Of a DNA stretch of 10,422 nucleotides, positions 2,648-9,883 are shown one piece after another. Origin of the DNA: Oligoflexales bacterium (GTDB lineage: Bacteria; Bdellovibrionota_B; Oligoflexia; Oligoflexales; Bog-1112); the NCBI GenBank assembly GCA_045105515.1, contig JBGCDR010000218.1, forward strand, positions 1 to 10,422, written 5' to 3'. Numbering within the stretch: position 1 is the first letter of the stretch; each line of letters begins with the position of its first letter. The position numbers were made by a program, and so were the translations under genes. Below the pieces are notes generated by a model that was not told the DNA's origin, searched no databases, and saw only the letters and a program-made list of their open reading frames with translations.

Positions 2648-2653
2648 AAGGAG
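2648..2653 (+). promoter_or_regulatory. Shine-Dalgarno site of the AAA gene
   Basis: AAGGAG 8 nt upstream of ATG 2662. Confidence 0.8.
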
Positions 2654-2661
2654 TTTTACTA

Positions 2662-5600
2662 ATGCAACTCTTCAGCCTATTATCTGCAATTTCTTTAACA
2701 TCAGCTTTCATCACACCTCAACCTGGGGTATATAAGACCAAGAATAGCTTTATAAAAAGAAACCCAGAACAAACTTTTTTTCATCAAAAACACAACAATA
2801 AATTTGATTCTCGATTGATCTTTAACCAACCTTTCCGTCCTGATGTAGGATTAAACTCTTTTTCTTCTTTTGAAGGAGAGTATTGGTTTAAGCGTTATGA
2901 TTCAGTTTTTGCAAGCCCTTACAGTGAGTATAGCCATATCATTCACATCATTGAAGGAGTTCTGCAAAAAAGATCTCTAAACACAGATGAAACCGCATAC
3001 TTGGTTAAATTATTTTCAGATGTGGGACTTCCTAAAGAGTTTGAAGAGTATTTAACAAGCCAAAATAATGAAGATTCCGAGGCTCATGAGACAAAAGAAT
3101 ATACAAACCCAGTGTTCCCAAAAGATGGCACCCCATCTATGACGACTCGCTATCCAGATATTCCTTCTCAACGTTATAGAGACGACATCCCTCGAGAATA
3201 TCGTTTACTTAAAGATCCACGCAGCATTCTCAATAGAAGAAGCGTGGAAGACTTTATAGAAAATAGTAGATTTTCGCTTCAAGATATAAAATATCTCGGC
3301 AAAATGGTAAGAGAAGATTATGAATTTAGATCTAAAGTAAAAAAATACTTGAGCACACCAATCCACCAAAAATTAATTAGTGATGAATTTCTTCCATACT
3401 TTATCGATATCATGAAGTCAATTTATTCGCACTCCACTGATCATGAATTTTATGGAAAGATTCATCATCTCCAAATTAAAACTGAAAATGAAGAAGTGGT
3501 CTCCTTTTATGACTATTTTGCCAGCTCAAAAAGCAAATTAGTAGACCTAAAAAGCCAATTAGAAGATCCAAACCTTACAAATTTAAATAAAATTCATCAT
3601 ATCCTTGGAATTCTTGAATTAAATTATAAAAATGGCAGCCCTATTTCACCTGCAGATCTATGCAGTGTCTTATTGGAAACTCGCAAAAATTATCCAATTG
3701 TATTGATGCATCCTGATATGATTACTGAATTCACCCAAGTTGTTAGCGACCTAAAACATCCTCTAGAAATTATCATTATTGCTAGCTTAGTTGGAGTACC
3801 TCAAGATTATCAGGCAACGATGCTCGAAAAATTTGACCTTGAACAGTCGGAAAAAGAAATTTACCAATGGCTCGGCCATCAAATCGCCAATCTAGATTCC
3901 GACAATCTTGTATGGGTTCTTGATGAATTCTTAACACACCATGTTATTTCAGAGCAATCCATAGCATTTAAACTTGATTTATTATCTAGTAGCAGACACA
4001 GCGAAGCTATCGATAAACACTGGCAAAAATTTGAAAATAACCAAGATTTTGAGTGGTTCGTTAAAATTCTTGTCGACTACTCAGGATTACTAAATAAGCA
4101 AAAACAAGAAAAGTTTACAGCAGAAATTCTCGCATACATAGGTAAAACGAAGCCTATTGATGATAAACGGGACCTAGTTTTAAAAGGCTTAAGAGCTATG
4201 AAGCTTGGTGGATCGTCTAACGTTATAGAGGGAATGATCAAGCAAATTAAAGACGCATGCAACCAAGCATCTCCTGACAAAGATCAAATCATGGTAATGG
4301 TTAACCAATTAATGCTTGAAATGCACCACTGGGAAACAAAAGAATTATTAGACTACATTGTAAACGAGCATGGTGATTCTCGTGCACGCAAACATCAACA
4401 AAATTTAAGCAAGTGGCTAGACAAAAAAACGCATGCCAATTCTATTGATATACAAGGCATTGCCCTTCAAGTTAATGATGATCCTGTTTACCCTCAGATG
4501 GTCCCAGAAAAAGCCAGTGCTGCTCTTGTTATGACTAAAACAGCTAAAAGAGTTCTTAAAAACCTTGCTGGACAGTGGCGAACAGGGAGTGTGACTCTAT
4601 TAGAAGGACCAACCAGCGCAGGAAAAACAAGCTATGTAAAATATATGTCCTATTTAAGCAACTCTCCATATATGCGCATCAACTTATCAGCAAACACAGA
4701 TGTTCGTGACCTTATTGGTCGCTGGGTTGGTGGAGAAGAAAGGTTCCAACCAGACGAACTTAAGGGCTTCTCTGATCGACAACTTAACACCATTGCAAAA
4801 AACATGGGGATATTTGGGGCTAAGGTTAACCGAAATAAAATTATTGAACAGATTTTGTTAACTCAAAAAGAAGCTCATTGGGAAGATGGTCCGGTAGTTC
4901 AAGCAATGCGCCAGGGTATGGTTTTGCTTCTTGATGAACTTAATCTAGCTAAACCTCAAGTAATCGAAGCCTTAAATAGCCTCTTTGATTCAGGGCGCCT
5001 AACCATCGATGATCATGGAGGTGAGGTAGTGCAACTCCACCCAAAGACACATATATTTGCCACGATGAATCCTAGTACTTATGTTGGTCGCAACTCTATG
5101 TCTGAGGCTTTTTTGTCTCGTTGCAACAAACTATGGGTTGAGGCTCCTGACACAGAGGATGTGGTGCAAATTGTTGAAACCCTTTACCCAGGTGTCATAC
5201 CTCAATTAGAACTGGCAAAACTAGTTTCTACTCATGAAGCTCTAACTAACTTAGCTGATCAAGGTCATATAGGTAAAACTCTGGGAGGGATTGCTTACAC
5301 CCTGAGAAACCTATTTAGAGTGGTAGAACGTTATAAATACTTTCATGGAAATACAAACTTAAGTGCAGAGCAGTTACTCCTAAGGGAATTCCGGGAAGTC
5401 TACCTCAGCACAATCACTGATGAAGATGAGCTTAAAATCATAAACGATATTCTATTGCTCAATATGCCTGTTGATGAATCTGATTTCTATACTGACCTGA
5501 ATTTTACCATTAATGCTGATGGCTTCACTATTGGTGATGTAAGGGTTAAGGGCTTAAATTTAAGGCAAAGCGACCTCACACCTGATTTAAGGGATAGTGA

Positions 5601-6447
5601 GGTTGTCATGACTGACCGGACCAAAAAAATCTTTTATAAAATGGTTAAAGCTCTTGAACTCGGAGAACATGTTGCACTTGTAGGGGAACGAGCAAGCGGC
5701 AAAACTATCCTTGCTGAATACTATGCAGCATTGCGAGGTCAGCCATTCTATCGACAAGTTTTTTCTGCGAAATCGGACAATATGGAACTCATCGGTATGT
5801 ACACACCCAATGGTTGGCAAAATGGCTTACTTGTGAGAGCTGGGCTTTCTGAAGAACAAGGTAAAGGTGATTCTCCTGGAGTTTTTTTAGCAGATGAGTT
5901 CAACCAGGCGAATGATGCTGTTCAAGAACGCTTAAACTCATTATTAGATAAGGATCGCACTCTGTTTTTATCCGAAAAAGGTGGCGGAGAAAAAGTCACT
6001 TTCGCCGATGATTTCCGATTTATTGCAGCATTTAACCCCCCAAGTTACGCAGGAAGAAAACGCCTTTCAAAGGCAATGCAAAGTCGTCTCTCAGTACAGT
6101 TCGTTCCTAATTTAGAAAATAAAGAGGAATACCAAATTATTTTCTCTATTATCGCAAAGAAAAAGGGTGTTAGCCAAGGGATCGTTAGACGACTTGTTGA
6201 CCTGCACTTTTGGGTCAAAGAACAGATTGAAGCCAGAGAACTGGGCGATCAATTGATCAAAAATAAATATATTTTCTCCATCAGGCAATTAAGAAATGCT
6301 GTGAAAAGTTTAAGAGTCTTAACCGGTGAACAAGGTGATGTTGTAGATGGGTTTAAACTAGCTGCTGAACTAGTTTACGAGTCCGTATTTGAAAGCGAAG
6401 AGGATAAGGAAAAAGTCAGGACTAAAGTCAAGGAGCTTTGCAGATGA
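2662..6447 (+). CDS. Tandem double AAA+ ATPase (MoxR/dynein-related AAA_5, midasin-like) with signal-peptide-like leader and ~600 aa unknown N-terminal region
   Basis: Module 1: Walker A GPTSAGKT (4606-4629), RINLS..TD..DLIG, Walker B LLLDE (4924-4938), sensor I ATMNP, Arg-finger region AFLSR, sensor II TLRNL. Module 2: Walker A GERASGKT (5683-5706), Walker B FLADE (5884-5898), AAFNP, AMQSR, SIRQL. Strong SD. Confidence 0.92.
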   Translation: MQLFSLLSAISLTSAFITPQPGVYKTKNSFIKRNPEQTFFHQKHNNKFDSRLIFNQPFRPDVGLNSFSSFEGEYWFKRYDSVFASPYSEYSHIIHIIEGVLQKRSLNTDETAYLVKLFSDVGLPKEFEEYLTSQNNEDSEAHETKEYTNPVFPKDGTPSMTTRYPDIPSQRYRDDIPREYRLLKDPRSILNRRSVEDFIENSRFSLQDIKYLGKMVREDYEFRSKVKKYLSTPIHQKLISDEFLPYFIDIMKSIYSHSTDHEFYGKIHHLQIKTENEEVVSFYDYFASSKSKLVDLKSQLEDPNLTNLNKIHHILGILELNYKNGSPISPADLCSVLLETRKNYPIVLMHPDMITEFTQVVSDLKHPLEIIIIASLVGVPQDYQATMLEKFDLEQSEKEIYQWLGHQIANLDSDNLVWVLDEFLTHHVISEQSIAFKLDLLSSSRHSEAIDKHWQKFENNQDFEWFVKILVDYSGLLNKQKQEKFTAEILAYIGKTKPIDDKRDLVLKGLRAMKLGGSSNVIEGMIKQIKDACNQASPDKDQIMVMVNQLMLEMHHWETKELLDYIVNEHGDSRARKHQQNLSKWLDKKTHANSIDIQGIALQVNDDPVYPQMVPEKASAALVMTKTAKRVLKNLAGQWRTGSVTLLEGPTSAGKTSYVKYMSYLSNSPYMRINLSANTDVRDLIGRWVGGEERFQPDELKGFSDRQLNTIAKNMGIFGAKVNRNKIIEQILLTQKEAHWEDGPVVQAMRQGMVLLLDELNLAKPQVIEALNSLFDSGRLTIDDHGGEVVQLHPKTHIFATMNPSTYVGRNSMSEAFLSRCNKLWVEAPDTEDVVQIVETLYPGVIPQLELAKLVSTHEALTNLADQGHIGKTLGGIAYTLRNLFRVVERYKYFHGNTNLSAEQLLLREFREVYLSTITDEDELKIINDILLLNMPVDESDFYTDLNFTINADGFTIGDVRVKGLNLRQSDLTPDLRDSEVVMTDRTKKIFYKMVKALELGEHVALVGERASGKTILAEYYAALRGQPFYRQVFSAKSDNMELIGMYTPNGWQNGLLVRAGLSEEQGKGDSPGVFLADEFNQANDAVQERLNSLLDKDRTLFLSEKGGGEKVTFADDFRFIAAFNPPSYAGRKRLSKAMQSRLSVQFVPNLENKEEYQIIFSIIAKKKGVSQGIVRRLVDLHFWVKEQIEARELGDQLIKNKYIFSIRQLRNAVKSLRVLTGEQGDVVDGFKLAAELVYESVFESEEDKEKVRTKVKELCR
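6430..6447 (+). promoter_or_regulatory. SD and ATGA start/stop overlap (translational coupling)
   Basis: AAGGAG (6430-6435) lies 8 nt before ATG 6444-6446, which overlaps the upstream TGA (6445-6447). This places the start at 6444 rather than TTG 6438. Confidence 0.85.
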
Positions 6448-9110
6448 AATTAACTTTACTGAGCTTAGGTCTTCACTTAGTCAGCGGATTCATGGGTCCT
6501 AACCCAAAGCTTATGAATCGGTTTGTAAACCCTATAACAGTAGACAGAAGTACTACGCCATCATTCCAACATTCAGAAAAAAATCAAGTGCTGAGCATTT
6601 TTTCTTTTAAAGAATCTCATATACCTCTATTTGGAGATGCTAGATCAGATAATTTCGCCCATGAACTAACAGATGAAGAGCTTAGGAAAAAGCTTAATAG
6701 GTTGGAAAGTCTTGCAAAAACTCTTACCGGAGACAAAACCCTAAGCTTAGAATCTGGCGATTCTTGGGCATATAAATCAGACACAAATACTCTTGTTTTT
6801 CCCCGAGCAGATTTGGACTCCATTTCGGAGGAAGCAGCAATTGCTCTCATCGCTCGCGAATCCGGTCATCGTCAATACACTAGCTATCCTCCTGAGGTAG
6901 CTCACAACCCAGCTTTTAAACTTCTTTTCAATACTATTGAGCAAATCAGAATTAATCGATATATGTCAGGTCGCCACCTTGGCTATCATCCTCTAGCATT
7001 CCTTGCTTTCAGACAGTTTCAGGCTGCGGCCAATCAAGTGCCACAAGCAAATGAGCCGCCTCATAAGCAGTTTTGCCTTGGACTCATTGATCAAAGTTTC
7101 GGTCAAAAAAATACACGATGGGCTCAATCTCCACGAGTTAAAAATGCACTTCAGCAAGTTAGAAGTTACGTTGAAGAAGCTACCGAACTTCCCATAGATC
7201 CTAGGGAGATGTTAATAAAAGGTCTATCACCTGAACAAATCATCTCCAGCTCGGAAACAAGCTATGAAATCATCAAAAATAAGATATGGCCAGTTTTCCA
7301 AAGCCTACTAGAGTCAGAATCACAACAAAAGCCTGAGCAGAATTCGGCTAATAGCAACCCTAGTGATGGAAGCCCTGGTGATGGAAGTCCTAGTGATGGA
7401 AGTCCCAGTGATGGAAGTCCCAGTGATGGAAGTCCCAGTGATGGAAGTCCCAGTGATGGAAGCCCTAGTGATGGAAGCCCTAATGATGGAAGCCCTAATG
7501 ATGGAAGTCCTAGTGGTGGAAGTCCCAGTGATGGAAGCCCTAGTGATGGAAGCCCTAGTGGTGGAAGTCCTAGTGGTGGAAGTCCCAGTGATGGAAGCCC
7601 TAGTGATGGAAGCCCTAGTGATGGAAGCCCTAGTGGTGGAAGTCCTAGTGGTGGAAGTCCCAGTGATGGAAGCCCAAGCGAGAGAAGCTCTCAAGGTTCT
7701 AATTCACCTGGGCAGGTAGCTAACAATGAGCAAAATCAGGATTTGGGAGAAATTGCTAAGGAATTACAGCAACAATGGGATCAACTTAGCTCTGAGCAAC
7801 AAAGACAAATTGAAGATCTCGCAAGAGAGTTAGAGAGCAAACTTGGAGAGGCGGATCCCAATAACCTTGAAAATCCTCAACAAAATAGTCAGTCAGAAAA
7901 TAAGCCAACACAGGCAGAAAGTAGCAATCAACCTGCTAGTCCATCAGATGGAGACCAGCCCGAGGATACCCAGGCTGGTGAGGGACAAGACAGTGACAAT
8001 AGCGAACAAGCGGGTGAGGGTGATGGACAGCCAGGTGAGGGTGATGGGCAGCCAGGTGAGGGAGATGGGCAGCCAGGTGAGGGTGATGGACAGCCAGGTG
8101 AGGGTGATGGGCAGCCAGGTGAGGGAGATGGGCAGCCAGGTGAGGGAGATGGGCAGCCAGGTGAGGGAGATGGGCAGCCAGGTGATGGACAAAGTTCAGC
8201 AAGCGATGGTGAAAGAATCAACACTGACTCCATTTCTATTGTAGATTCTGATGAAGGTGCTGGCGGTAATGAAGAAGGCTATCAGCAACACGCAGATAAC
8301 CATCAAAAACTCATGGAAATGATCGAAGAATTCAAACGCCGCAATAACATGCAAAATATCCCAGACTCTTACGAATCCCTTAAAATGCGCAATAAGCAGT
8401 TAATTGACGAGTTAAGTGAAGAGGTTCGTCATATATTCGAAGATGACTCTGAACCCCAATTAGAAGGAGACTACCGTTCAGGCATCTATAATCTCCAAAA
8501 AGCCATTGAATCAAAGGCTCGATCCCAAGCAACCGGTCACAAAGACGACAAAATTTTCTTAAGAAAAAATCATCCCGAGGAAAAAAGTGTAGAGCTTGTC
8601 ATTTGTCTCGATACTTCTGGAAGCATGAGTGGAGAATGCATAACTTACGCTAAGGATGCTGTGGTAGTAGTAGCGGAGATGGCGAATGAGCTCAAGTTTC
8701 CTTGGGGTCTCCTAACCTTTTCAAATAGTGTGGACCTGCTCAAAGAACTCCAAAAATCTGAGAAAGAACATAACTGGGAGCAGGCCCTCGTGGATGCTGA
8801 TGCCAGTGGTGGAACCGATGATTTTGCCGCTCTGGAAAAAGCGGTAGAAATGTTCACAGAATCAGATTCTGAAGCAGAAAAGAAAATAATTCTCTTTATG
8901 ACTGACGGTTCAGGAAACAACAGGCAAAAAGAATATGTAAAACAAATGCAAGAGGAAGGGTATTGGGTAATTGGTATAGGTATTGGCCAGGGGACATCGT
9001 ACGTTGCTGAAACCTATGACCGCTCTGTATATGTTCCAAAAGTGGAAGAACTCCCTTTAGAATTAGCACAGCTTATGCTTGAGCTGCTTAGGGAAGGTAC
9101 TCATAAATGA
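6444..9110 (+). CDS. vWA (MIDAS) domain protein with CobT/midasin-tail-like architecture: leader, degenerate zincin-like N-domain, acidic repeat linker, C-terminal vWA
   Basis: MIDAS DTSGS (8610-8624), Thr in GGTDD (8814-8816) and Asp in MTDG (8904-8906). Long D/E/S/G/P/Q-rich linker from about 7305 to 8330. N-domain motifs RESGH and NTIEQIRIN. Coupled to an AAA gene, as in MoxR-vWA operons. Confidence 0.9.
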   Translation: MKLTLLSLGLHLVSGFMGPNPKLMNRFVNPITVDRSTTPSFQHSEKNQVLSIFSFKESHIPLFGDARSDNFAHELTDEELRKKLNRLESLAKTLTGDKTLSLESGDSWAYKSDTNTLVFPRADLDSISEEAAIALIARESGHRQYTSYPPEVAHNPAFKLLFNTIEQIRINRYMSGRHLGYHPLAFLAFRQFQAAANQVPQANEPPHKQFCLGLIDQSFGQKNTRWAQSPRVKNALQQVRSYVEEATELPIDPREMLIKGLSPEQIISSSETSYEIIKNKIWPVFQSLLESESQQKPEQNSANSNPSDGSPGDGSPSDGSPSDGSPSDGSPSDGSPSDGSPSDGSPNDGSPNDGSPSGGSPSDGSPSDGSPSGGSPSGGSPSDGSPSDGSPSDGSPSGGSPSGGSPSDGSPSERSSQGSNSPGQVANNEQNQDLGEIAKELQQQWDQLSSEQQRQIEDLARELESKLGEADPNNLENPQQNSQSENKPTQAESSNQPASPSDGDQPEDTQAGEGQDSDNSEQAGEGDGQPGEGDGQPGEGDGQPGEGDGQPGEGDGQPGEGDGQPGEGDGQPGEGDGQPGDGQSSASDGERINTDSISIVDSDEGAGGNEEGYQQHADNHQKLMEMIEEFKRRNNMQNIPDSYESLKMRNKQLIDELSEEVRHIFEDDSEPQLEGDYRSGIYNLQKAIESKARSQATGHKDDKIFLRKNHPEEKSVELVICLDTSGSMSGECITYAKDAVVVVAEMANELKFPWGLLTFSNSVDLLKELQKSEKEHNWEQALVDADASGGTDDFAALEKAVEMFTESDSEAEKKIILFMTDGSGNNRQKEYVKQMQEEGYWVIGIGIGQGTSYVAETYDRSVYVPKVEELPLELAQLMLELLREGTHK
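7359..7673 (+). repeat. Coding VNTR, 21 x 15 bp (CCYAGTGATGGAAGY consensus; PSDGS/PSGGS/PNDGS/PGDGS)
   Basis: 315 bp counted as 21 units, in frame within the vWA gene. Confidence 0.97.
8013..8180 (+). repeat. Coding VNTR, 8 x 21 bp (GGTGAGGGWGATGGRCAGCCA; GEGDGQP)
   Basis: 168 bp counted as 8 units that differ only at synonymous positions. Confidence 0.97.
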
Positions 9111-9121
9111 TGGCTTCATTT

Positions 9122-9883
9122 TCAATCCCCTATACCCCTATCGGAGCTTGGCAGTGTTAAAGTCAGAACTAAAGGTGGCTCTATCCCAAAATCTAAGGGT
9201 ATTCTGGGAACATCATCGCAAATGATTCCCAGTCCCTGCTTTTGCAATGGTTGGGCCATGGAATCTAAGTATTTACCAAGCTTTATTCCCCAGATTTGTA
9301 GCCTTAGAAACTTCTTTATAAGGAAAGTCGGGGCTTTTATCCCCTTTTCTAAAGACATTTTTTCATAGACTGGAGCGAGCTTTGCAGAGCGGCCTATAGA
9401 CTCGAGCAAATGTCGCTGCATACAATGATAGTGAGGCTCTGATTCTATCTCTCTTATTGCGAGGATTACCGTATTTAATAATTCTGAATAACTGTTGCTA
9501 AGATTAGCATTAAGCGAACTAATCAAACCGTATGTATCTAAACTCTGTTTTGGATCACCATGTGGAACCAAGGAATCAGACAGACTCGGGCTTAGAGCCA
9601 TGGAAACAAATTCAGAGCACATCAATGGAACCCCTTGTTCTTGCCATAATTTTGCCCGCCAATCAAACCACTTAGCACTGACCCATGTCAAACGCTCAAA
9701 CCAAATAAGTGTATTTGAAACCTTCCTAGATGTACCTCCTGACTGCTGTGCATACAATTCACGCCTGTCTTTATTTAGATCAATCGCTTCTCTAAGATGT
9801 TTGGTAAAACAGTCTCGCTGTCCTGTTTCTGCATAACTTGAGCTCGCCAATACAAAATATAGATATAGAATAAATAACTTCAT
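9122..9883 (-). CDS. Secreted hypothetical protein with a two-fold internal repeat and 4 Cys
   Basis: Sec-type leader MKLFILYLYFVLASSSYA|E. Repeated CxxxHLxExI ... DxxAxxxQxQGxxxxC units. Confidence 0.8.
   Translation of the reverse strand: MKLFILYLYFVLASSSYAETGQRDCFTKHLREAIDLNKDRRELYAQQSGGTSRKVSNTLIWFERLTWVSAKWFDWRAKLWQEQGVPLMCSEFVSMALSPSLSDSLVPHGDPKQSLDTYGLISSLNANLSNSYSELLNTVILAIREIESEPHYHCMQRHLLESIGRSAKLAPVYEKMSLEKGIKAPTFLIKKFLRLQIWGIKLGKYLDSMAQPLQKQGLGIICDDVPRIPLDFGIEPPLVLTLTLPSSDRGIGD

Follow-up and report, generated by a model that had tools for sequence, protein, structure and literature searches.

Two overlapping genes of an Oligoflexales bacterium (genome 90.9% complete) raise the question of whether a bacterial AAA+ ATPase and its von Willebrand factor A (vWA) partner could both leave the cytoplasm. 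AAA+ motors are considered to act only in compartments that contain ATP, and ATP is presumed to be missing from the bacterial periplasm. To our knowledge, every characterised relative of the pair (CobS/CobT, the MoxR-vWA pairs and midasin) is cytoplasmic or nuclear. We have asked what the leader at the start of each protein may be, using the window (the whole 10,422-nucleotide stretch of DNA) together with its source genome and relatives. ORF calls, start choice and the cleavage-site matrix used below are in-house heuristics.

The ATPase ORF occupies 2662-6447 (+) and encodes 1261 aa, its N-terminus reading MQLFSLLSAISLTSAFITPQP, and the vWA ORF extends from the ATG at 6444 to 9110 (+), with 888 aa and the N-terminus MKLTLLSLGLHLVSGFMGPNP. 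The first-pass annotation had assigned an AAGGAG Shine-Dalgarno sequence to both starts, and we have found each of them 8 nt from its ATG. Since 2662 is the first start codon past the upstream stop, the ATPase has no alternative upstream start in frame; the vWA frame has an additional TTG at 6438, two codons upstream of the ATG. The ATGA overlap suggests that the two genes are translationally coupled. The features at the gene starts and downstream of the pair are as follows.

2648..2653, + strand: Shine-Dalgarno AAGGAG of the ATPase gene, ATG 8 nt downstream
2662..2706, + strand: ATPase leader, residues 1-15 (MQLFSLLSAISLTSA), with the best predicted cut before F16; kept in P0002-P0005
2707..2847, + strand: ATPase linker, residues 16-62, basic, poorly conserved and predicted to be disordered (from pLDDT, identity and charge)
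6430..6435, + strand: Shine-Dalgarno AAGGAG of the vWA gene, within the end of the ATPase gene, ATG 8 nt downstream
6444..6447, + strand: ATGA overlap of the vWA start (ATG 6444-6446) and the ATPase stop (TGA 6445-6447)
6444..6488, + strand: vWA-protein leader, residues 1-15 (MKLTLLSLGLHLVSG), then F16, read from the translation
9122..9883, - strand: neighbouring gene, conserved, family unknown; its leader is strongly export-like (matrix score 11.8)

The neighbour at 9122..9883 (-) gave no Pfam match and shares 58% identity with its counterpart at the same position in L002, the one locus found in a scan of genome contigs. Its functional link to the ATPase-vWA pair is unproven.

The leaders, taken as 21 residues, align without gaps with 8 of 21 positions identical (M1, L3, L6, L12, S14, F16, P19 and P21), as had been noticed from the letters alone. 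Both have a hydrophobic core, and the small residues at -3/-1 (T-S-A before F16 of the ATPase, V-S-G before F16 of the vWA protein) are present, although these count as weak evidence, Ser, Ala and Gly being abundant in family leaders. We have compared this likeness with that among 790 export-like N-termini drawn from the in-house ORF calls on the source genome, where 0.48% of all pairs reached at least 8/21. Two of the 101 adjacent same-strand leader pairs did so, one being the ATPase with its vWA protein and the other two lipoprotein paralogues. The likeness between the leaders is modestly above chance, and the 8/21 identity is largely generic, reflecting the leader grammar of this genome: a hydrophobic core, a small-then-F junction and Pro soon after. 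Phe at +1 is enriched in the genome's leaders (13%), and the pattern [SAG]F.{1,2}P is found within residues 10-26 in 74 of 5112 ORFs. One of the shared positions, P21, was lost from the pattern when the ATPase orthologues were considered.

Two unrelated hydrophobic N-termini without a common function could resemble each other by chance; the 0.48% of export-like pairs reaching 8/21 and the ~29% of the genome's ORFs that begin with a hydrophobic stretch are consistent with this. Against it, the leader is kept on both subunits across orthologues (69-83% identity), relatives (35-41%) and the paralogous operon, and the leader DNA is under purifying selection, with synonymous changes inside it and a diverged linker beside it. 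We consider a chance resemblance very improbable.

Homologues were examined for the leader, which was present in 12 of 13 ATPase relatives and in all four vWA partners (a count that leaves out the partners of P0002-P0005), including the second operon of the same genome. Judged from these sequences, the leader is a family trait. Both subunits bear it in both paralogous operons (contigs C218 and C231), and so does P0032, the only further vWA partner recovered; it was absent in 10/10 distant high-GC bacterial relatives. The small-small-Phe junction recurs in the otherwise diverged leaders of both subunits. The ATPase-vWA family is rare. Order- and phylum-level searches (95 and 131 genomes) found it only in G000 and G012, and G052 gave distant leaderless forms. 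A search of 1.84 billion proteins with the N-terminal domain of the ATPase gave just 5 representative clusters, and searching with that of the vWA protein returned the query itself only. With the C-terminal part of the vWA protein, one true relative (P0032) was obtained among 23 matches, and two metagenome scans (alignment A1; P0006) found nothing. An ankyrin-like stretch read by eye in a G052 relative was discarded, being without Pfam support at E<=0.001.

We have then considered how strongly the leaders are conserved. Relative to the G012/L002 orthologue, the ATPase is 79% identical in the leader, 29% in the linker and 75% in the rest; for the vWA protein of the same two genomes, the values are 71% for the leader, 29% for the linker and 71% for the N-domain. 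In 17 ordinary leader-bearing orthologue pairs from these genomes, a few of them with doubtful starts, the difference between leader and mature identity averaged -0.25 (sd 0.19) and reached +0.23 at most, and that between the leader and the 45 residues after it was never above +0.22. Both leaders are thus unusually conserved, to a degree comparable to folded domains.

Such conservation, far above that of the linker and unlike 17/17 ordinary leaders, would be expected of an uncleaved N-terminal membrane tether. The leader would then be a short hydrophobic helix lodged in the inner membrane or just spanning it, its N-end facing outward, with the Pro-rich turn and the basic linker on the cytoplasmic side. 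The subunits, kept together at the membrane, would stay in the cytoplasm to remodel a membrane complex, which would remove the ATP problem. The charges are compatible with this arrangement. Sec signal peptides begin with a positively charged n-region; that of the ATPase leader has a charge of 0, and the vWA leader has K2. A neutral or acidic beginning would be expected of the mature protein, and the first 18 post-leader residues of the ATPase carry a net +4, reached by 2.9% of the 175 confident leaders of the genome, so that the charge pattern is reversed (n-region 0, then +4). The combination of no n-region charge with at least +4 after the leader is found in 0.6% of these 175, among which 87% have an n-region of +1 or more and 13% are uncharged or negative. 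The ATPase orthologues keep the tendency (n-region 0, next 18 residues +1 to +4), as the positive-inside rule would predict for an N-out/C-in orientation. This charge test is weak here, the genome's leaders being barely depleted of post-leader positive charge (mean -0.09 vs. -0.03 in random windows). A modelled disordered linker of ~60 residues past the helix would also suit tethering, and there are known MoxR-vWA pairs that act on membrane complexes, such as NorQ/NorD (PMC9976466) and RavA/ViaA with Nuo (PMC3893208).

The charge pattern is less uniform across the family: the n-region is uncharged in 12/17 family leaders and the N-end positive in 5/17, and several lack net positive charge afterwards, including P0011 (0) and P0032 (-1). 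A hydrophobic core, ~7-15 residues long in Sec signal peptides, is present in both leaders and in 15 further family leaders, yet it is short and polar for an anchor. The family set comprises the leaders of the window pair, L002, the C231 pair, P0002-P0012, P0031 and P0032. The best 19-residue Kyte-Doolittle window lies below 1.6 in 14/17 family leaders (median 1.35; ATPase 1.35, vWA protein 1.13), whereas the genome's lipobox leaders have a median of 1.62 and its multi-pass proteins one of 2.18 in their first helix, the latter comparison being partly circular as this class was preselected at >=1.8. Both leaders fall short of a membrane anchor as we defined it (a helix of ~19 or more residues with a 19-residue window of ~1.6 or more), and P0009 and P0011 have only ~12 hydrophobic residues ahead of NLEQ. 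Within the limits of this partly circular comparison, the leaders lack the length and the hydrophobicity that a helix would need to span the membrane. Moreover, a single anchored subunit would suffice for tethering, yet both subunits bear a leader in every operon seen. An F5/8 type C (discoidin) domain (30.1 bits vs. cut-off 28.2) occurs in one relative, P0007; in bacteria such a domain is mostly extracellular, and it fits a cytoplasmic site poorly. We regard a membrane tether as possible but rather unlikely.

Short signal peptides directing both subunits to Sec-type export are the alternative that we tentatively favour, with a confidence just short of an even chance. The presence of the leader on both subunits favours export, because export needs a signal on every subunit and a tether does not. 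The leaders match the signal-peptide grammar of the genome. With a cleavage-site matrix trained on the source genome's own leaders (cuts at 12-24, mostly 15-18), 12/13 ATPase-family N-termini and 4/4 vWA partners fell in the top 7% of the internal-window control, with predicted cuts at residues 13-19. The ATPase and vWA leaders scored 6.5 and 4.8; 2.2% and 3.6% of internal windows score as high, and the matrix is only about half specific in this range. Indeed, 14 random ORFs scoring 4-8 comprised 4 exported families, 3 membrane proteins, 4 cytoplasmic enzymes, 1 patatin and 2 without family. The top cut of the matrix lay after F16 in the vWA protein of the window and after G15 in its L002 orthologue, whose leader reads MKIALLSIGLNLVSG-F. 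Some features are atypical of an exported protein and count against this reading, namely the uncharged N-end of the ATPase, the basic stretch after it and the domain-like conservation of both leaders.

The same conservation above ordinary leaders could also point to a specific non-Sec element, either a recognition peptide for dedicated export or compartment loading, or paired helices joining the subunits. The small-small-Phe-x-x-Pro junction would fit such an element, as it is family-specific, common to two non-homologous proteins and rare in the genome (the 74 ORFs mentioned above). However, ordinary leaders of the genome also end in this junction motif, and the ATPase model shows the leader helix, at low confidence, standing clear of the domain. 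The first-pass annotation had suggested scanning the genome for a family of co-targeted proteins, and no such set emerged: a scan of the genome with a leader HMM retrieved only the ATPase and the vWA protein (E ~1e-7), the next match being at E 0.0075. A dedicated route would hence serve these operons alone, and neither operon (C218, C231) adjoins secretion or shell genes. We find a non-Sec element improbable.

We have next examined what the two proteins are likely to do, based on the following features.

2887..4386, + strand: predicted all-alpha N-terminal domain of the ATPase, ~residues 76-575 (predicted model, pLDDT)
4579..5151, + strand: first AAA_5 module, with Walker A GPTSAGKT and Walker B D758 E759 (Pfam, invariant columns)
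5158..5451, + strand: midasin-type AAA lid, AAA_lid_7, residues 833-930 (Pfam)
5659..6171, + strand: second AAA_5 module, with Walker A G1008-T1015 and Walker B D1078 E1079 (Pfam, invariant columns)
6651..7343, + strand: CobT-N-like domain of the vWA protein, ~residues 70-300 (ESM Atlas structure rows)
7358..7675, + strand: 15-nt tandem repeat, 21.2 copies, encoding a GDGSPS-type low-complexity linker (repeat scan, translation)
8013..8189, + strand: 21-nt tandem repeat, 8.4 copies, encoding a GEGDGQP acidic linker (repeat scan, translation)
8595..8996, + strand: vWA domain, residues 718-851 (Pfam VWA, E 3.3e-14)

By sequence, the pair combines an AAA_5 ATPase of two modules with a CobT-like vWA protein whose MIDAS residues are intact. 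Pfam assigned AAA_5 to the ATPase in 3 stretches (E 2.1e-42) and AAA_lid_7 with E 6e-06 (26.9 bits vs. cut-off 22.7). The ATPase is presumably active, because its Walker A and B residues do not vary in any of the 11 aligned sequences. In the ATPase model, pLDDT was below 50 over residues 10-75 and mostly ~75-90, in blocks, from residue 190 onward. For the fold of its N-terminal domain, nothing in the PDB matched at E<=0.001. The PDB search yielded weak alpha-solenoid rows with a TM of 0.22 or less, and a feature-based search of the ESM Atlas had no usable match. The vWA N-domain reached a TM of 0.65-0.69 (by query) to ESM Atlas clusters with CobT_C/VWA and is 32% identical to the paralogue; the vWA protein had no Pfam CobT match. 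As read from the alignment with the paralogue, the MIDAS residues of the vWA domain are D723-x-S725-x-S727, T791 and D821. Operon structure and family precedent suggest that the ATPase and the vWA protein bind each other.

The nearest familiar arrangement is CobS-CobT, the motor/adaptor of the aerobic cobaltochelatase CobNST, in which an AAA_5-class ATPase likewise adjoins a vWA protein. The vWA protein resembles CobT in having an N-domain, an acidic low-complexity linker and a C-terminal vWA domain, and the Atlas places its N-domain nearest CobT-like clusters. The ATPase differs from CobS, the CobS model giving it 17 bits vs. a cut-off of 558.55, and it has two AAA_5 modules plus a domain of about 620 residues with almost no relatives; leaders on both proteins are a further difference from CobS-CobT. 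A CobN-Mg_chel search found no CobN/BchH-type subunit in the 90.9% complete genome. Identity with CobNST was rejected on these grounds, CobS being below the cut-off and no CobN match having been found.

The operon also resembles those of RavA-ViaA, NorQ-NorD and CbbQ-CbbO, each combining a MoxR-clade AAA+ ATPase with a MIDAS-bearing vWA partner. RavA, NorQ and CbbQ have a single AAA module, are cytoplasmic and are not known to carry an N-terminal leader, whereas the present pair has tandem AAA_5 modules, a midasin-type lid and leaders on both subunits. ATP-driven remodelling of a MIDAS-held target is the mechanism to be expected of MoxR-vWA pairs (PMC7159879, PMC9976466). AAA_5 modules with AAA_lid_7 and an acidic low-complexity stretch ahead of the MIDAS domain are shared with midasin (Rea1/MDN1). 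The best ATPase matches outside bacteria are eukaryotic midasins (E 1.7e-86 to 2.4e-69, 25-27% identity; two named midasin by their source), and bacterial relatives are closer (35-44% identity). Midasin differs in uniting six AAA modules and MIDAS in one nuclear polypeptide, while the present ATPase has two modules and leaves the MIDAS to a separate protein. A known anti-phage defence system was also considered and dismissed, PADLOC giving the ATPase two weak partial matches only (22.2 and 20.4 bits) and no match for the vWA protein or the 9122..9883 neighbour.

TorsinA (in the ER) and Plasmodium HSP101 (in the PTEX translocon) are eukaryotic AAA+ rings with secretory signals, working in ATP-supplied compartments beyond the cytosol. 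They differ from the present ATPase in belonging to other AAA+ clades and in having no vWA partner. A MoxR-vWA pair with an extracellular role has been described for Acidianus two-tailed virus, whose MoxR-type ATPase p618 is a major virion component stimulated by the vWA protein p892 and the proposed driver of extracellular tail growth (PMC4124505). That pair belongs to an archaeal virus and is delivered by the virion without a signal peptide, and we liken it by description, not by sequence. An exported vWA/MIDAS protein from a related predatory lineage is Bd0875 of Bdellovibrio bacteriovorus, a MIDAS-family adhesin whose residues 1-22 comprise a signal peptide and a lipobox (PMC11003981). It differs in being a lipoprotein adhesin, and that article mentions no ATPase partner, with 0 occurrences of "ATPase" or "MoxR".

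Genome context favours export, because ATP/nucleotide importers (TLC) occur in 16/16 genomes of the family, vs. 0/14 controls, three other AAA ATPases have export-like leaders, and one relative carries the discoidin domain. The source genome has six full-length TLC nucleotide-transporter genes, and three Cdc48/p97-like AAA proteins plus one AAA_28 protein with export-like leaders (scores 6.9-15.8). Signal peptidase I genes and three secretins were found as well. A kinase-motif scan returned 7 ORFs, 2 with a leader flag, and is too crude for use. The idea of an ATP-containing destination, advanced when the locus was first read, thus gained backing from the importers and the other leader-bearing AAA ATPases, whereas the export step itself is still a suggestion.

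Under Sec-type export, each subunit would start with a short signal peptide (13-16 residues), to be removed by signal peptidase I immediately ahead of the conserved Phe, and the two-gene machine would thereby be sent out of the cytoplasm. The machine would join a double AAA_5 ATPase, which would form rings and belongs to the CobS/MoxR/midasin class, with a CobT-like vWA partner that may grip a target via its MIDAS site. By analogy with the relatives, ATP would be spent on pulling or remodelling this target. The tandem AAA modules would be expected to assemble as a trimer. Several ATP/nucleotide importers in the lineage point to a probable life in surroundings that contain ATP, in a host or prey. 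Imported host or prey ATP must cross the outer membrane, so it would be present in the periplasm and around the cell; the exported machine would either receive it in the periplasm or be passed on into the host. We put forward, as a proposal with somewhat less than an even chance, that a nucleotide-parasitic Oligoflexales lineage Sec-exports a whole AAA+-MIDAS pulling machine run on host-derived ATP, be it in the periplasm, at the surface or inside the host, and that this machine belongs to a wider set of exported ATPases that includes the three Cdc48-like AAA proteins.

If the leaders are tethers, the pair would be a doubly membrane-anchored MoxR-type remodeller, which is unusual but less surprising. 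If they are true export signals, this family would possess an ATP-driven protein-remodelling machine outside the bacterial cytoplasm, and the rule that strictly confines bacterial AAA+ motors to the cytoplasm would be overturned.

The genes under study lie on contig C218 (full length, 10,422 bp) of a draft genome of 6.29 Mb in 461 contigs (38% G+C, completeness 90.9%, contamination 4.8%).

2662-6447, + strand: ATPase gene, 1261 aa, two AAA_5 modules and a midasin-type lid (Pfam AAA_5, E 2.1e-42; AAA_lid_7, E 6e-06)
6444-9110, + strand: vWA gene, 888 aa, C-terminal vWA domain (Pfam, E 3.3e-14)
7358-7675: 15-nt repeat, 21.2 copies, vWA-protein linker
8013-8189: 21-nt repeat, 8.4 copies, vWA-protein linker

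The two genes, both on the + strand, form an operon in which the ATPase stop and the vWA start overlap (ATGA) and AAGGAG precedes each ATG by 8 nt. Translation and ungapped comparison bore out the leader sequences and the 8 of 21 shared positions described by the first-pass annotation. The nearest named relative was the Oligoflexales locus L002, whose ATPase is 74% identical. The non-coding DNA 5' of the ATPase gene (2605-2661, compared with L002 7364-7425) was well conserved across both species and includes ATCGATCAAAGG and AAATCAATCTGC; it may be a common promoter or regulatory site. A gene for a lipid-droplet-associated hydrolase (1149-2078, - strand; PF10230, E 9.5e-44), a family known mainly from eukaryotes, has a counterpart adjoining the operon in L002 (E 4e-46). 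On the other side, 9122-9883 (- strand) encodes a 253-residue protein of no known family with a strong export-like leader. Its position and orientation are conserved in L002, with 58% identity overall and only 27% in the leader, as is typical of ordinary leaders; no paralogue was found near the second operon of this genome (contig C231).

Judged by sequence comparison, the leader is a family trait of the ATPase and its vWA partner. Four close ATPase orthologues (69-83% identity) start with MQ[LI]F[ST][LI]L, after which come two small residues and Phe, and the relatives at 35-41% identity have N-termini that differ in sequence and are equally short and hydrophobic. The vWA orthologue of L002 begins MKIALLSIGLNLVSG-F (numbered from the second Met), and the one further partner recovered, P0032, whose contig equals that of P0009 in length, begins MNIMLLLFLQAIISG-F. 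Both proteins of the C231 operon begin with a hydrophobic leader as well; identity to the window proteins is 38% for the ATPase and, for its partner, 43% across the vWA part and 32% across the N-domain. A cleavage-site matrix trained on leaders of the genome itself placed 12 of the 13 ATPase leaders and all four partner leaders in the score range reached by the highest 7% of internal control windows. At these scores the matrix is only about half specific, which counts against a signal peptide. The ATPase relative P0012 has a hydrophobic N-terminus, yet scored low (-0.6), and P0013 lacks a hydrophobic N-terminus. The leader was absent in 10 of 10 distant relatives and in the two relatives read from genome G052.

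The G052 proteins (contigs C211 and C87, loci L005 and L020) come from another family of the order and, at 30-31% identity, are distant AAA_5 proteins with two modules; their long N-termini are rich in Ser, Thr and Pro and lack a hydrophobic leader. Reading by eye suggested an ankyrin-like stretch in one of them, which Pfam did not confirm. P0010, P0012 and P0013 are three paralogous ATPases of the family (1260, 745 and 721 residues), probably on one 19,841-bp contig; the long N-domain is missing from two of them, the leader from P0013. Genes around the paralogous operon (C231:173-3346 and 10237-11412, locus L056) encode products whose N-termini also look export-like or membrane-like (scores 21.2, 13.5, 4.6 and 11.1), which suggests that the region is an island encoding envelope proteins or secreted ones.

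The likeness between the two leaders is only mildly special. Among 790 export-like N-termini from our own ORF calls, 0.48% of pairs reached 8 of 21 identities, as did 2 of 101 adjacent pairs of export-like leaders. The common positions fall in the hydrophobic core and at the junction, where a small residue precedes Phe at +1 and a Pro comes shortly afterwards; Phe at +1 is already common in leaders of this genome (13% of 475), and these leaders show an excess of Pro at +3 and +4. We consider a chance resemblance very improbable. A genome-wide family of co-targeted proteins did not emerge: an HMM built from 12 family leaders, which the window pair matches by construction, gave E ~1e-7 for these two proteins and 0.0075 for the next best, and a strict leader pattern matched only the two. 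Therefore, there is no genome-wide co-targeted set.

The leader on both subunits is real, conserved and functional. The likeliest of the readings, though still a tentative one, is that a Sec-type route exports the entire machine to a space supplied with ATP. In length and in the place of the predicted cut, the leaders agree with those of the genome at large, where the cuts used for training span 12-24 with the majority at 15-18, and the small-small-Phe junction is kept where the remaining leader sequence diverged. One relative carries a discoidin domain above the Pfam cut-off. The hydrophobicity resembles that of cleavable leaders rather than membrane helices, with median best 19-residue windows of 1.35 for family leaders, 1.62 for lipobox leaders and 2.18 for multi-pass first helices, a class preselected at >=1.8, so that the contrast is partly built in. 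This also speaks against a cytoplasmic, membrane-tethered machine. In addition, a leader is present on each of the two subunits in all operons examined; export would need this, tethering would not.

On the other hand, the n-region of the ATPase leader lacks positive charge, and the 18 residues after the leader carry +4; these two features coincide in 0.6% of 175 confident leaders of the genome. Moreover, between this genome and its congener both leaders are as conserved as folded domains (ATPase: leader 79%, linker 29%, rest 75%; vWA protein: leader 71%, linker 29%, N-domain 71%), whereas in 17 ordinary leaders identity lay a mean of 25 points below that of the mature protein. This pattern suggests a sequence-specific role and keeps in play both the membrane tether, which we regard as rather unlikely, and a specific non-Sec element, which seems less likely still.

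In both AAA modules the Walker A and B residues were invariant across all 11 aligned relatives, and the vWA domain retains D-x-S-x-S, T and D, which we take to be the MIDAS motif. In the vWA protein, the leader is followed by a variable linker, a ~230-residue domain, a long acidic low-complexity stretch encoded by the in-frame 15-nt and 21-nt tandem repeats, and the vWA domain. At the repeat position, the L002 orthologue instead carries another low-complexity sequence, including a Ser run; hence, the linker evolves fast. Assemblies may break at such repeats, a possible reason why the partners of close relatives went undetected. An Atlas structure search placed the ~230-residue domain nearest to CobT-like clusters (TM 0.65-0.69 by query). 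Cobaltochelatase identity was rejected (CobS model, 17 bits against a cut-off of 558.55), and no CobN-type subunit was found in the 90.9% complete draft. The first 620 ATPase residues are rare: a search covering 1.84 billion proteins gave only 5 matching representative clusters (E<=0.001). The AlphaFold model (mean pLDDT 71) predicts a short N-terminal helix at residues 2-13, a disordered stretch (pLDDT <50 over residues 10-75) and an all-alpha domain without a solved-structure match at E<=0.001. Outside the small family, relatives of the ATPase are leaderless, visibly Ala/Gly/Arg-rich proteins of 1400-1900 residues at 35-44% identity, two of them source-named "Deltaproteobacteria bacterium", and eukaryotic midasins at 25-27%.

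Within the open-access library searched, we found no paper on a signal-peptide-bearing MoxR-type ATPase. For Acidianus two-tailed virus, a MoxR-vWA pair with an extracellular role has been described (PMC4124505). In Bdellovibrio, a MIDAS adhesin is described that is exported and has no ATPase (PMC11003981).

The genome has signal peptidase I genes, three secretins and one T2SS-L match, below the model cut-off. It also encodes AAA proteins with export-like leaders.

C66:6252-7670 (-), C305:197-1447 (+), C452:122-1642 (-): classical AAA (PF00004) proteins (L023, L027, L028), 416-505 residues, strong leaders (scores 12.1-15.8)
C105:3556-4581: AAA_28 protein (L024), leader score 6.9

In a PDB search with the C452 and C305 proteins, the best solved relative was Cdc48/p97 (E 8.3e-81 and 4.1e-31, respectively). 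A predicted lipoprotein (C179:6223-7212, - strand, L025) carries a dermatopontin domain (PF14704, E 1.7e-20), a family known from animal extracellular matrix. Six full-length TLC-type ATP/nucleotide transporter genes are present (C74, C181, C166, C40, C393 and C190; L043-L048), and such transporters occurred in all 16 genomes of the family to which this genome belongs (1-6 copies each), most of them small (1.8-3.5 Mb), against 0 of 14 control genomes. Since the lineage carries these transporters, the premise of no ATP beyond the cytoplasm is weak for it.
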